Origin: Chloroflexota bacterium
Lineage (GTDB): Bacteria > Chloroflexota > Dehalococcoidia > Lucifugimonadales > JADFKI01
NCBI GenBank assembly: GCA_027623195.1
Contig: JAQBUT010000003.1
Coordinates: forward strand, 1 to 64,000
DNA length: 64,000 nt
Direction: 5' to 3'
Shown here: one piece after another, positions 3,414-16,844 of the stretch
How the letters are laid out: every line of letters begins with the position of its first letter
Position numbering within the stretch: position 1 is the stretch's first letter
Notes under the pieces: model-generated
What the model saw: the letters and a program-made list of their open reading frames with translations, nothing else
What the model was told of the DNA's origin: nothing
Databases searched by the model: none
Program-made: the position numbers and the translations under genes

Positions 3414-4886
3414 CTACCGGTAGTACACGGTATGGTCGTCCGGTAGGCTCTTGGGACAGGAGCCCTCGTTGAAGGTTGCCGCCATGGTGTCCGGCGTTAG
3501 CATCTTTAGGAAGACGTGCCAGCCTTGCAATCCGCCGGTGCCATTGGCCGACACAAAACAGTGCTCATCTGTGACAGTGCGCGGGTCGGTGAAGGAGTCA
3601 TCTTGGGGTCCTAGCTGTACGGAGACCTGCTCCTCGTTAATACGGAGGTAGCCGTCTGGCATGAGCGCAATGGTCATACCCCAGTCGGCCCTGCCGTATT
3701 CGCCCTGATCTACGTAAGGCGTCTGGAACCATCCGCCGTAAATGGAGCCAGGTACGTCGAATGAAGTATTGCAGTCGGCTTCTGCCGCACTGCCGTTAGA
3801 CCCTCCGAATAGCGCACGGTACTCGTCGCCCATGTCGCCCTCGAAGTAGTCGTAAGGGCATTCAGCGTAGAGCAGAACTCGCAGGTCTCCGGTTTTCTCG
3901 TAGCGTTCCTGGTTGGCAAACGAGTTCTGTACAGTGGTGTTGTTGAATATAAAATCCCAGCTGTGGGCCACTATAGTGCCGGTGGTGTAGCCCATCAGGT
4001 CGCAGGCCTTCACGCTTATGGAGACCTGCTTTTCAGCGTCGCGAGTGGTGTTAGCAGGTACTTCGGGAGCATATTCAGATACGCCCGTGGCTAGCTCTGA
4101 AAGATGGTCAAACCCGTACGTAACCTCGCAGCTTATACTTAGCCTTAACTCGTACTGGGGAACGTCCTGCCAGTCGCCGTTAATGTCTGGCATTGGCTGA
4201 AGGTAGTAAGTAATGCCTATAAGCTCCGAATCCGCCGGGGCATAAACCGGCACACTCGGCGCCAGGGTGCCGTATTCAGCGTCGATGTTGAGGTACGAGC
4301 GGTTCTTGTACCAGTTACCGCTTATTACAGACGGCGGAAGTATATTGCTAATGGTGTTCAGGTCGGTTATGTGCGATGTCAATACTGGCGAGGGGTCGCT
4401 TTTGCAGTTTGGTTCGCCGTAGCCGTACTGAGTGCCACCGATGTTTTTGGCCGTCGTGTCCGCTTGTTCCCCACTGGTTGGTTCGTCAGGCGAGTGCGTC
4501 GGCATTGGGGACGAGTAAAGCTTGGCCTCGGTAGTGGTCTTGGATATGGGAGGTAAATAAAGCTTTGCGTTTGCAGTTGAGGCCTCAGGCTCGGAGGCCT
4601 TGGTGGCCGTAGCGGCTGGCACCGACTTTGCCGTGAAGACAGGTTTTGGCATAGATGTTTCCGTCGGCAGGGGAGCCTGCGCCGTCACAACTGATGCCGA
4701 CGGCTTCGATGGCGTGTTGTCCAACGTGGGCTTTGCGGGGGACACAATCGCAGGTGCGTCGCTTGGTTTTGAGGCGTCGCTGCTCTCGATACTTGGTGAC
4801 GCCGGTGGCCCCGTGCATGCGACCATTACGAAAACTATCGCCGCGACCGCGATGCCAGTGATCGAAACTCTATTTAAATCCCTCAT
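3414..4886 (-). CDS. Lipoprotein with a Pro/Ser/Thr/Ala stalk and a degenerate M23-peptidase-like domain
   Basis: Lipobox MVAC; low-complexity linker; PVYAPADS, FDHL and VKACDLMGYT resemble the M23 fold. Confidence 0.6.
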   Translation of the reverse strand: MRDLNRVSITGIAVAAIVFVMVACTGPPASPSIESSDASKPSDAPAIVSPAKPTLDNTPSKPSASVVTAQAPLPTETSMPKPVFTAKSVPAATATKASEPEASTANAKLYLPPISKTTTEAKLYSSPMPTHSPDEPTSGEQADTTAKNIGGTQYGYGEPNCKSDPSPVLTSHITDLNTISNILPPSVISGNWYKNRSYLNIDAEYGTLAPSVPVYAPADSELIGITYYLQPMPDINGDWQDVPQYELRLSISCEVTYGFDHLSELATGVSEYAPEVPANTTRDAEKQVSISVKACDLMGYTTGTIVAHSWDFIFNNTTVQNSFANQERYEKTGDLRVLLYAECPYDYFEGDMGDEYRALFGGSNGSAAEADCNTSFDVPGSIYGGWFQTPYVDQGEYGRADWGMTIALMPDGYLRINEEQVSVQLGPQDDSFTDPRTVTDEHCFVSANGTGGLQGWHVFLKMLTPDTMAATFNEGSCPKSLPDDHTVYYR

Positions 4887-6273: not shown

Positions 6274-8561
6274 ATGGTTCGTCAGAAACCCTACCGACGT
6301 GTGTTAATAGGGGCGATATTCGCCTTCGTTTTTGTCGCGGCTCTTGCCTGCGAAGACCTGCCTGCCGACCTTGCGGCACTGGCCACCGCGCAGCCTCAAG
6401 AGGTCGCAACGTTGCAGGCGGCGCTTACTTCGACAGTAAAAGAGGCCGTTCCAACTGCTACCGCTCAGCCTGAGCCTACGGCCACGCCAATTCAGCGACG
6501 GCTAACTGGTGCAGCGCAGTTCACTCCCACCCCTGCTCCCGACAGCGTGGAGCCGCTTGTGGACGGGCCTGATGACACGGGGTTGGTGCAAGCCAATAGC
6601 ACTTTTCCAGCACTCAATCCAGGGACTCTTCGGGGGGCAGGTTCGCCTTAACCATTAATGGCTCGGCTCCCGATCCTTTACATTCCGTGGAAAATGGAAT
6701 AATCCAGGGTGAAGTTGTAACTCAGCAACTAGGGTCGGACAATCTGACTCGGAAGCATCTTGCCACTATTTCCTACCAGCCTTTTAACATCGAGGTTGAC
6801 ATGGACATGAGCGGTCAATTTTACGAATGGATCGAAGACGCCATCGACGGCAACTCTCAAGAGGCGGATGGTGAAGTGATAGTGTTGGGGGCGGACTTCG
6901 GGGACCTGTCCACCCGTCAATTTACGGATGCCATTGTAACGAAGGTCACCTTTCCTGCGCTGGATGGGTCCAGCCGTGACGCCGCGCATCTTGGAGTACA
7001 GTTCACTCCCGAGCAAATTAACTACGATAGTGGGAACGACGGTCTCGCTGAAGTATCGGCGGGTAGGGCCAAACAAATGAAGGGGTGGCTAGTTTCCAAC
7101 TTCCGTATTGAGCTAGGTGACCTGCCAACCGACCGTGTTTCCAAAATAGACTCATTTTCCTGGGAGCAAAAAGTAGTTGAAAGCCAGGTAGGCTCCTTTG
7201 GCAATCAGACCTTACAGCCTGCAGGCGTTGAGGTGTCGAATCTAAAGTTAACCATATCCATGGCGGACATCGACGAGTGGGCCGACTGGTTCGATGAATT
7301 CGTCGTCGACGGTCACGCGTCGGATTCTGATGAGCTGTCCGGTACCCTTACCTTTCTGGCCCCGGATTTGCAGGCAGAGCTGGCCACAGTCTTGCTGGAT
7401 CACGTTGGCATTATCTCTCTAAGCTTGCCTAGCCTGGAGGCCAACCAAGACCAGGTCCAACGATTCACCGTAGAGTTGTATGTTGAGGACCTGTTCTTCG
7501 AATACATAGGAGATGGCGGCTCGGGGTCGGTCATCCCTTCGGTGCCCACGCCTACGCCAGCAGCACAACCCACCGCCGCTTCAACGTCAACTCCGGCCCC
7601 TGTTGCGGCTCCTCCGTCGCCTACAGCGACCGCGAACGCCCAGACACCGACTCCCACGTCGTCCTTGTTACCGCCGGCATTCCCTACGGCTATATCCAAC
7701 CAGCCGCCATTGGTAACAGGAAATGAGTCGCCCACGGTAGCCATCCTCTCATCTGTTGAAGATGTGGAGGGTAGCCCGGTAGTCCTGGATTATCGCCTGT
7801 CGGACTCCACCGGGGATTCCGTGTCTGTTGAAGTTGCTTACTCCCTGGATAGCGGTCGAAGTTTCAGAAACGCTTCGCCAACATCGAGGCTCGCTATAAC
7901 GCGCAACCTCGCAACTAGCGCTTCGGGGAAGGATTATAGCTTTACGTGGAACTCCGGATTGGACCTGGGCGATAAGTCGTTCGACGGCGTCCTAGTTCGA
8001 ATTACCCCGTCAGATGCGTCTGTAGGTAGGAGTGCGCAAACCCGGCCATTCGCATACAACCCGTTGAGAAACGCCGTGGCCTCAGCGTGCGGCGTCAGAG
8101 ACGGCCAATGGCTACTGGATAGCAGGAATTGGGACGTTCTGCATAAGGCGTTGCTGGTTTGCCAAAACGACCTTGTGTTGTCGATTCAGGAAGGGCTCAC
8201 AAGCATAGATAGTACCGCCAGGAGCACACGGACCCTTTCGACAACCCTAAACGATATAAGTAGCGCGCAAAAGCTTGCTTCCGTGTATGGCACGGACGCC
8301 GTCTCATTGCAGAGTGTCGCCGGCTTAGCGGATGGGGGCACGGTGTCGACCGATAAGCTTGGCGTCACCCTCGCGACGCTGGACGGTCTTGCCGCCGAAT
8401 TGGACAAGACCTTGGCGACGATGGGTGACGATTCCCAACTTATGAATCTGGACCTTCAGGGTAAGATTCAACAGCAGCAACAGACGCTGCAAACGCTGTC
8501 CAACGTGTCCAAAATGATGCACGATACCGCGATGTCTATCATCAGGAACATACGCGCTTAG
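6274..8561 (+). CDS. Frameshift-split lipoprotein: lipobox, two tail-tube (T4 gp19/eCIS-like) domains, PT stalk, Ig-like domain and a T3SS needle/tip-like C-terminal helix
   Basis: AAGGAG SD and ATG at 6274, lipobox ALAC. The tube-like sequence starts at about 6621 in the -1 frame (RDSSGGRFALTING..LHSVENG) and runs into ORF 6687-8561 (FYEWI..DG, VTFPALDG, NFRIELG, WADWFDEFVV, VELYVE). C-terminus LDLQGKIQQQQQTLQTLSNVSKMMHDTAMSIIRNIRA. Confidence 0.7.
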
Positions 8562-15761: not shown

Positions 15762-16844
15762 TTACCCGTCAACGATGTCAACATGAACATCCCAGTCAAG
15801 CTCTTTGACTATGAGCGTCTCCGGCATGCGATATTCGATTGCCATCAACTGGGTCTTAGGAGGCATGCCAGGGCATTGGATTCGCCAACACCAGACGGAA
15901 GAGTCCTCAGATTGCGAGCTATCGAGCCGGAATCTCATCTGTGACAGCCATATCGGTTCTAATAAGTTGAACAAAGGCTGATAGCTTTTTCCGCGAGCGG
16001 ACGGATTCCACGGCAGATGGAACCACTCCATTTCGTCCACGACGGGCGTCGGACTCCCACTACGCTCTGTTTGGGAATAGCGAACAGTTCTCTTGCCAGC
16101 CTGCAACATGTAGGTTGGACGGATGACGGTGTGGTTCGGATATTGGCCAATTTCAATTAAAGCGGTATCGGCTGAGGTTTCGGATAGATTGCGAATACCC
16201 AGATGAACTCCGGGTTCGATGACTCCACTAGTCGGCGTCGGATCAATTCTCAGTTCGCTTTCCCAATATTTAGTCAGACCTGCGACCAAATGCAAATTAG
16301 GTGTTGCCCCTCGTGCTTTGAGCAATTCAATTTGGTAATGCTCCATTGGCTCCGATTTATAATGGGACCGTTGATAATATCTCCAATCTGAGGCTTGATA
16401 TGCAGTGCCAATTCCCGCATCTACCTCAATGAGAAAGACAACTCTGCCGCATATTTCGATTTCGTTAATATTGAACAAACTTGAGACTGGCTTTGGTTTG
16501 ATGTTACTCGTAATCAAATTTTCGATAATTTCTTTTGTAATTTCGCCGCGGCGGTAGCCGTCTTGCTCTGAATCAAACAATGAAAGTGGTATGGGTGCCC
16601 CGCCTGTTGCAGGCGAATTTTTAACTTCCCGAATTCCGTAAATGAGGACGCCGCCATCAGAATTGAGAAAAGATGAAACGTCCTTGCTGATATCCTCTGC
16701 TCTTTTCTGGCTGTCTTTACCCTTTCCTCCCTGATTGATTGGTAGCAGGGCTCGTTTCTCTTTGTAATCTAAATGCGAGTTCTCCGGTTCTTGATCCCTC
16801 AGCATTCTAGGGAGCTCAGAATTCCAATCGATCGACGAAAACAT
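15762..16844 (-). CDS. Schlafen/AlbA_2 domain protein with an unknown C-terminal beta-rich domain
   Basis: ENSHLDYK, KDVSSFLNSDGGVLIYGIRE, YYQRS..SEPM; visibly AT-richer than its neighbours. Confidence 0.85.
   Translation of the reverse strand: MFSSIDWNSELPRMLRDQEPENSHLDYKEKRALLPINQGGKGKDSQKRAEDISKDVSSFLNSDGGVLIYGIREVKNSPATGGAPIPLSLFDSEQDGYRRGEITKEIIENLITSNIKPKPVSSLFNINEIEICGRVVFLIEVDAGIGTAYQASDWRYYQRSHYKSEPMEHYQIELLKARGATPNLHLVAGLTKYWESELRIDPTPTSGVIEPGVHLGIRNLSETSADTALIEIGQYPNHTVIRPTYMLQAGKRTVRYSQTERSGSPTPVVDEMEWFHLPWNPSARGKSYQPLFNLLEPIWLSQMRFRLDSSQSEDSSVWCWRIQCPGMPPKTQLMAIEYRMPETLIVKELDWDVHVDIVDG

Follow-up and report, generated by a model that had tools for sequence, protein, structure and literature searches.

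What does a protein built from parts of two injection machines do in a bacterium in which neither machine is detected? This question is raised by a single gene in the window, a 64,000-nucleotide stretch of DNA from a Chloroflexota bacterium (contig JAQBUT010000003.1, assembly GCA_027623195.1). The gene spans positions 6274-8561 (+) and encodes a putative lipoprotein in which two tail-tube domains of the gp19 type are followed by an immunoglobulin (Ig)-like domain, a helical domain and a conserved C-terminal helix with weak matches to the needle proteins of type III secretion systems (T3SS). By sequence and model, and on the features tested, the predicted protein belongs neither to extracellular contractile injection systems (eCIS), nor to phage tails, nor to T3SS needles, though it resembles a tail-tube ring. 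We propose that its putative job is that of a decoy or jammer against the injection weapons of predators, a reading to which we assign a probability of about 0.35. Hereafter G000 is the genome bearing the window, G001, G002, G004, G028, G034 and G054 are relatives, and P-, L- and X-numbers denote database proteins, loci and sequencing runs, respectively.

Tandem tube module and needle-like tail

The gene starts with an ATG at 6274 that is preceded by AAGGAG. The initial annotation let it end at about 7510; the real end at 8561 adds 350 residues, which comprise a Pro/Thr linker, the Ig-like domain, the helical domain and the conserved C-terminal helix. In the window, a one-base frameshift near 6601-6602 splits the gene into an open reading frame (ORF) in frame 1 (6274-6651, 125 aa) and a second frame that is open from 6600 to 8561 (653 residues) and contains both tube motifs. 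The database protein P0001, encoded on another contig, is intact at 762 aa and has the same sequence save at the junction.

The motifs quoted in the initial annotation are all present, namely the lipobox, the Ala/Thr/Pro linker and the two tube motifs FALTING..SVENG..FYEWI..DG..F.DA.VTKVTFPALDG and NFRIELG..VSKID..WADWFDEF..SGTL.FL..VELYVE. The tube family PF06841 scores over its cut-off (53.8 versus 28.2 bits, E = 2.2e-14) in two stretches, 6639-6989 and 7098-7490, and the two tube domains aligned to each other share 16% identity (E = 0.001). Foldseek matches contractile injection system (CIS) and T4 tubes at E-values of 3e-6 to 1e-4, with TM-scores by target of 0.59-0.74, and structural alignment to single CIS tubes gives Z scores of 9.4-10.6; both bear out the tail-tube fold that had been claimed. 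The best structural matches are the trimeric tandem tubes of siphophages (Z 17.0-17.4, root-mean-square deviation (rmsd) 4.1-4.6, 264-278 aligned residues, 4-11% identity), among which T5 pb6 aligns across residues 108-597 of P0001. A sequence search of the PDB gives a Streptomyces CIS tube as its best match (E = 0.11). The AlphaFold model of P0001 has a mean pLDDT of 58, with the tube part mostly at 65-90. A prophage remnant was rejected, as no tblastn match was found in 50,697 phage records and no tail PHROG was found.

A trimer closing into a pseudo-hexameric ring had also been envisaged. The three-copy model of the tube module scores 0.74, compared with 0.00 for the best control, with contacts agreeing by at least 88% between runs and a pLDDT of at least 80; among solved pairs 20 of 30 pass the same mark, and among single chains 1 of 23; the task differs from those of the calibration, and the pass may reflect memory of, or likeness to, solved tubes. 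The contacts run head to tail, domain 1 of one copy lying against domain 2 of the next, and the model supports the joining of tandem tube modules as a head-to-tail trimer. The stacking hairpins have the length found in eCIS (25 and 27 residues), and the module (294 residues) carries a net charge of -34 versus a median of -5 in 14 eCIS tubes. Passages of PMC10034513 describe the P74-26 tail tube as trimeric rings whose stacking is driven by loops and whose first stable state is two rings.

The 68-residue tail matches 1,388 cluster representatives at E ≤ 0.001. Its motif stands at the very C-terminus in 133 of the 136 pattern-matched top matches, and a signal-like start is present in 52 of the 145 top tail matches. 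The scaffolds that carry it are unrelated: small helical proteins, PKD-Ig lipoproteins, archaeal-type exported proteins and truncated housekeeping genes. The needle family PF09392 stays under its cut-off both on the window tail (13.1 versus 29.4 bits, E = 0.11) and on all 145 tail proteins (best 23.2 bits; P0054, E = 7.9e-5). A profile of the tail matches the needle-complex chain 7y6c_F (E = 0.006), and leads from the atlas point to type III needles at 0.86. Among 61 tails the mean identity is 85%, a figure inflated by motif-based retrieval, and four-fold sites are near saturation (0.34 versus 0.31 expected, 1,791 pairs). On this ground we rejected a mobile cassette that had recently spread the tail at the level of DNA; the conservation of the tail therefore lies at the protein level.

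A signal-less protein, the presumed parent of the tail, carries another conserved helix besides. Its gene is flanked on both sides by SycD/LcrH-like genes, whose family matches (E = 9e-26 and 2e-29) fall just short of the cut-off. P0001 and this parent share the tail only (65 columns, probability 99.8). The parent is modelled as a long helical hairpin, for which Foldseek gives nothing at E ≤ 0.001 (EspA, E = 1.1) and structural alignment gives Z scores of at most 8.8 to many coiled coils; EspA, SseB and Bsp22 are examples of the filament or tip proteins with which the tail was compared. Among the hosts of tail-bearing parents, one NCBI label is Myxococcota. A donor of the tail among eCIS-bearing myxobacteria was rejected: alignment A3 matched 2 of 50 genomes and 10 of 401 genomes of the myxobacterial phylum, one of them strongly, which was a signal-bearing orphan (few candidates were scored per genome).

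At L098:7794-13861, L100:746-7388, L139, L145 and L167, the tail protein is part of a conserved cassette that consists of a SycD-like gene, X, sometimes Y, the tail protein, a large helical protein and a SycD-like gene on the opposite strand. No further type III genes were seen within reach, and two of these loci are near trigger factor and clpPX-like genes. Exported strings of short VgrG-, Hcp-, gp19- and DUF4157-like motifs are found in P0013-P0018, P0059, P0103, P0145, P0158, P0161, P0202, L069, L080 and L084; several end in the same tail, and one cluster is named Nitrosopumilus. In P0070, P0077, P0087, P0090 and P0176, the tail stands behind truncated or unrelated partners, namely a tRNA-synthetase-like protein, an exonuclease piece, a prolyl oligopeptidase N-terminus, DUF6884 and a peptidoglycan-binding domain, and some of these may be misassemblies.

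The N-terminus reads as that of a lipoprotein, with a basic n-region, a hydrophobic h-region and a lipobox Cys at which lipidation is predicted. The Cys is kept in all seven full-architecture homologues that have a whole N-terminus (two read by eye as SLAC), in line with the surface lipoprotein proposed initially, and genes for Lgt and signal peptidase II (LspA) are present in G000. The Ig-like domain has no Pfam match, and its match to a carbohydrate-binding module (8wae, rmsd 3.2, 101 aligned residues) is middling. No named structural look-alike was found for the Ig-helical part or the helical domain (best 0.76).

Features of the gene in the window, with the basis of each assignment
Feature	Coordinates	Strand	Basis
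Predicted lipoprotein signal peptide, lipobox ALAC, Cys26	6274..6351	+	sequence; Cys conservation; Lgt and signal peptidase II in genome
First low-complexity linker, 51% P/T/A/S, predicted disordered	6352..6600	+	composition; pLDDT <50 for residues 1-122
Frameshift, one base shorter than open allele; frame 1 stop at 6651	6601..6602	+	X1 as window; X2, X3 and X5 open; P0001
gp19-like tube domain 1, P0001 residues 121-253	6633..7031	+	PF06841; Foldseek; structural alignment
gp19-like tube domain 2, P0001 residues 270-412	7080..7508	+	below the PF06841 cut-off by itself (E 3e-5); single CIS tubes matched at Z 9.5-10.6
Second low-complexity linker, 72% P/T/A/S	7512..7718	+	composition; model
Ig-like beta-sandwich, residues 483-598	7719..8066	+	AlphaFold model; Z 8.9 match to 8wae
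Helical domain, two conserved Cys and two Trp	8067..8354	+	alignment; low-confidence model
Conserved C-terminal helix, P0001 residues 695-762, GDD.QL.N.DLQ...QQQ.LQ..SNVSK..HDTA...IR	8355..8561	+	68 residues; cluster search; weak PF09392 and 7y6c_F matches

Undetected machines and the wider tandem-tube family

The flanking genes are metabolic, as had been noted, by our reading of the ORFs and not by a family scan: the gene stands alone, with a monooxygenase-like gene running divergently from it and a dehydrogenase-like gene downstream. Sheath and baseplate genes, initially described as lacking from the neighbourhood, were not found anywhere in G000 (87% complete), and neither were spike genes. 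The only gp19 matches in this genome are those in the present gene. In the single genome G000, searches found no sheath (PF04984, 0/1; control positive in 3/14), no spike OB-fold (PF04717, 0/1) or baseplate J (PF04865, 0/1; controls positive for both) and no type III export protein FlhA/SctV (PF00771, 0/1; control positive in 4/14), and ten eCIS queries gave a single chance-level match (E = 0.008).

A scan of species genomes yielded 64 tandem-tube loci, 15 of them sheath-linked and 48 sheath-less (51 ORFs), with L084 excluded as partial. At the 15 loci the sheath adjoins a tandem tube of ~300 aa, in the order Pvc16, sheath, tandem tube, a small conserved (chaperone-like) ORF, sheath, single tube and then baseplate genes where the locus extends; 12 have myxobacterial names, 2 are named 'delta proteobacterium' and 1 'Proteobacteria'. 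Export signals were called in none of the 15 sheath-linked tandem tubes, and among the 51 ORFs of sheath-less loci 19 have a Tat-like leader, 12 a Sec-like signal, 18 none and 2 are cut, by a simple heuristic in which two Tat patterns were assigned manually after inspection, the Sec call of L050 is probably false and the second L078 copy is a membrane anchor. Hosts of the sheath-less tandem tubes belong to Nitrospirota, Acidobacteriota, Verrucomicrobiota, Actinomycetota, Armatimonadota, Bacillota and Chloroflexota. A sheath is present somewhere in 7 of the 28 signal-bearing genomes searched, and none was found in the other 21, the genomes being incomplete. The signal-less tandem tubes of the 15 sheath-linked loci occupy the main-tube slot of eCIS of the myxobacterial type.

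The window tube module is nearest to signal-less copies (45-52% identity, one named Kofleriaceae); it is 48% identical to the tube of a Nannocystineae eCIS and 22-35% identical to most orphans. In a tree of 75 rows, built by a quick search, midpoint-rooted and with no clade test, 7 of 9 fusion rows cluster with the eCIS tubes L028 and L029 and one orphan (SH-aLRT 95). We infer that the tube was transferred from eCIS to Chloroflexota. L024, L026, L028, L034, L064 and L208:3265-8442 form a myxobacterial eCIS subtype with a tandem gp19 gene in the main tube slot, and such a subtype predicts a three-fold tube inside a contractile machine. Passages of PMC11937823 report that eCIS gp19 genes are highly expressed in marine Myxococcota and speculate on predation.

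Comparison with known systems sets the protein apart from each of them. The inner tubes of eCIS (Afp1/Pvc1/Cis1 and Afp5/Cis5; PF06841, TIGR02241) share its fold and family score, and its nearest sequence relatives are the tandem main tubes of myxobacterial-type eCIS; unlike eCIS tubes, it has two domains per chain, a lipoprotein signal, 350 extra C-terminal residues and strong acidity, with no sheath or baseplate found. Siphophage tandem tubes (T5 pb6, the P74-26 tail tube protein and the SH-Ab15497 major tail protein) likewise have a pair of tube domains in each chain, arranged in ring geometry, and match the window protein at Z 17 across 264-278 residues, but identity to them is low, phage records hold no match, the neighbours are metabolic (and kept in G001) and the window protein is predicted to be lipid-anchored. 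As it is by sequence a contractile-system tube, its tandem duplication looks independent of that in siphophages. The T3SS needle SctF (PF09392) has a C-terminal helix ending ...D....IIR.I, to which the tail is linked by weak profile matches and by parents flanked by SycD/LcrH-like genes; the window protein differs in staying under the family cut-off, in being a putative Sec-exported lipoprotein and in that no FlhA/SctV gene was found in G000. Evolved Hcp and VgrG of type VI secretion systems are tube-fold or structural subunits fused to added domains, and are cytoplasmic, machine-fired and toxin-bearing. The window protein likewise adds C-terminal domains to a tube-fold subunit, but has a lipoprotein signal, and neither a machine nor a toxin domain was detected. 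No description of such a protein was found in searches of an open-licence library, which omits most subscription papers; literature searches by tail or protein motif returned unrelated text only, and passages of PMC12210884 make no mention of such proteins. The newness lies in the architecture, not in a demonstrated function.

Elsewhere in the window, a second lipoprotein-like gene (3414-4886, -) has a Pro/Thr/Ser linker and no Pfam match, and is syntenic in G001, where it forms two ORFs. An ORF at 15762-16844 (-), presumably encoding an AlbA_2/Schlafen-type domain protein, lies in a low-GC dip (48-51%) and is unlike its metabolic neighbours. G000 also encodes two HELTHVVQQ-motif proteins, which we take to be DUF4157-like, at L087:5921-7546 (contig C11) and L088:6025-9495 (contig C19), one beside a recombinase-like gene and one near a transposase-like gene.

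Spread, selection and breakage of the fusion gene

About ten database proteins share the whole architecture at 42-63% identity, and the database label of the homologues is Chloroflexota. Strong matches occur in 5 of 60 relatives, after 7 of the 12 relatives with a match were left uncounted as weak (E = 3e-6 or worse) and lying on Pro/Thr linkers. Two of them have the whole fusion: G004, and G001, in which both ends are present at the edges of contigs. A tandem tube that bears a signal and stands alone is found in G004 and G028, an Ig-helix-tail unit without tubes in G034, and the tail alone in G054. G028 additionally has a further gp19-like pair with an internal stop (G028:C34:2876-3688) besides its intact signal-bearing tandem tube. 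In a survey of the class, 2 of 401 genomes have a match at E ≤ 1e-8, G000 included, the other being a weak Ig-only match (at most 2 candidates were scored per genome). Gene order is conserved in G001, where the flanking proteins are 84-92% identical and the fusion protein ~60%; in G004 the gene has different neighbours. G002, of the same genus, lacks both the gene and the flanking orthologues, and its lack of the gene is therefore uninformative on deletion.

Eight of the 12 allele differences are synonymous, compared with 25% of sites (P = 0.003). Relative to G001, the nonsynonymous rate (dN) is 0.23-0.33 at a synonymous rate (dS) of 1.5-2.3 in the Ig, helical and tail domains, and dN is 0.05-0.10 in two neighbours. 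These patterns indicate that the fusion gene is under purifying selection. The gene is also rare, fast-evolving and repeatedly broken. Of the 15 members listed for the P0004 cluster, 14 are fragments, terminating at residue 297 or beginning at 330 or 373, and one spans the region; the tube-less sibling in G034 is interrupted by a transposase-like ORF. The Ig-helix-tail unit stands behind a PKD-type domain, not tubes, in the lipoproteins P0010 and P0153 and in G034. Fast evolution, patchy distribution and recurrent breakage fit a conflict gene.

The window allele is itself broken. Run X1 carries this allele, and X2, X3 and X5 (two studies) have one extra base at 6602 and an open frame. The frameshift looks like a strain allele, because X1 shares it, the other three runs are open and the intact P0001 comes from a different contig; an assembly slip is not favoured, as the same allele is present in the X1 contigs, though X1 is a possible source of the window DNA and hence not independent support. 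The window allele would give no more than the 125-aa stub, perhaps together with a product of the downstream frame that lacks the signal, and probably has no activity. The runs with the gene are aquatic or estuarine; no RNA run is among those listed with the gene, and a scan of the gene for promoters and terminators gave chance-level results only.

A proposed decoy or jammer and competing readings

Lipoprotein export and lipidation place a protein outside the membrane. The intact allele would yield a lipoprotein on the outer face of the membrane, and three copies would join head to tail via their tandem tube domains, like trimeric phage tail tubes. The source of the tube module would be a myxobacterial eCIS main tube, and that of the tail a filament or tip protein of T3SS type. 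Held on lipid anchors and flexible linkers, the ring would show three Ig-helix-tail arms, and there may be two or a few stacked rings; the tail could then join onto a type III filament or tip, or cap it, and the ring could bind incoming tube subunits or tube cargo. As a PKD-type domain replaces the tube in siblings, the tail may be the working end. We favour a decoy or jammer because both conserved modules appear to come from different injection machines, neither machine is detected in the host, and both modules also occur as separate exported orphans. More widely, we put forward as a tentative and rather doubtful possibility that many bacteria and some archaea possess an undescribed class of anti-injection defence, in which the best-conserved structural parts of predators' weapons (the tube of eCIS, the filament or tip helix of T3SS, short VgrG/Hcp motifs) have been captured, supplied with Sec, Tat or lipoprotein signals and put on display as decoys or dominant-negative jammers. 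This protein would be a two-in-one member directed at both eCIS and type III systems.

Several observations weigh against the decoy or jammer. The strong acidity of the tube module could block mixing with eCIS tubes, and 18 of the 51 orphan tandem tubes have no signal. The fusion rows are not one clade, P0005 and P0008 being placed apart but nearby in the quick tree, with its limits of search, rooting and testing. The resemblance of the tail to T3SS needle proteins is weak but consistent, lying under the Pfam cut-off with one PDB chain at E = 0.006, and the inflated identity among tails was mentioned above. SycD-like flanks are found in 5 of 80 metagenome tail loci and any cassette partner in 13 of 80, and no T3SS export gene was found within these 80 loci, most contigs being short. 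In 301 sampled genomes of the myxobacterial phylum no cassette partner was found, with few candidates scored per genome. Moreover, eCIS particles reach their target already assembled, so that jamming by a subunit is hard to picture. A type III-like system acts in Myxococcus prey lysis without needle and translocon, according to passages of PMC12075869, and such a needle-less system offers no help to the idea of needle capping.

Nearly as likely as a decoy is a structural surface protein that has been domesticated and has nothing to do with predators, though it too stays well short of an even chance. Here the stable trimer or short ring stack would space out and multimerise an Ig-like adhesin and a C-terminal helix that associates with itself, serving adhesion, cell-cell contact or a coat. 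The tube looks like an exchangeable spacer because the Ig-helix-tail unit sits behind a PKD-type domain in siblings, and the trimer model, the eCIS length of the stacking hairpins and an acidification that suits an exposed surface agree with such a scaffold; T5 pb6 is likewise a tandem tube with an extra C-terminal domain. A scaffold, however, does not account for why the two most conserved modules both stem from injection machines, or for the high identity of the tail on many unrelated scaffolds, and the Ig-like domain resembles a carbohydrate-binding module to a middling degree (Z 8.9).

The breakage described above raises the alternative that the gene is horizontally acquired debris, shuffled, once useful or never, and now being lost, which we consider unlikely. 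The frameshift, the fragmentary P0004 cluster, the transposase-like ORF in the G034 sibling, the few relatives with strong matches or the whole fusion and a GC content at third codon positions of 0.54-0.61, versus 0.59-0.78 in neighbour genes, would suit such a history. It is weakened by the share of synonymous allele differences, by dN well below dS, by the gene order kept in G001, by the whole architecture retained among homologues and by the intact frame in 3 of 4 runs.

The charge of the module raises another alternative. Hcp rings bind effectors, and solute-binding proteins use lipoprotein anchoring. An acidic ring with a lumen that holds peptides, cations or other cargo might act as a binding or capture protein for uptake or sensing, not defence, and the charge of -34 on 294 residues, the anchoring and the trimer model are compatible with this; it is quite improbable, as no transporter or sensor gene is linked to a gene that stands alone among metabolic genes, with other neighbours in G004, and the tail is left unexplained. 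The initial proposal, in which the protein anchors, nucleates or acts as a conduit for a contractile or tube structure with its other subunits encoded at a distance in the genome, is very improbable: although G004, which has the fusion, also has a sheath and single-domain tubes on another contig, a sheath occurs in 7 of 28 signal-bearing genomes and the incomplete G000 has two DUF4157-type proteins, this gene has the only gp19 matches in G000, where no sheath, spike, baseplate or tail paralogue was found either, none was found in G001, and the cytoplasm, in which CIS tubes are assembled, lies on the other side of the membrane from a lipoprotein.

The initial annotation is supported in its tube fold, undetected machine, lipobox and, by a model, trimer, and not in its anchor or nucleator. 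A long filament or conduit is doubtful since every subunit would be lipid-tethered, and a long upright tube is unlikely because a linker of ~95 residues ties each chain. The needle-like tail, the eCIS link of the tandem tube, the Tat/Sec-exported orphans outside Chloroflexota and the broken window allele had been missed.

To our knowledge, tail tubes and the needle subunits of T3SS have been described as machine components that lack Sec and Tat signals. Here the two types of part are joined in a single chain, which is kept by selection and appears to be exported although no machine is detected; each is also found as a separate exported orphan across phyla. Parts of injection machines thus seem to have been reused for a new job, possibly as decoys. 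If the decoy reading is true, the protein would give prey a defence, open to test, against predators that attack by injection; its job, whatever that may be, falls outside the known systems with which it was compared.

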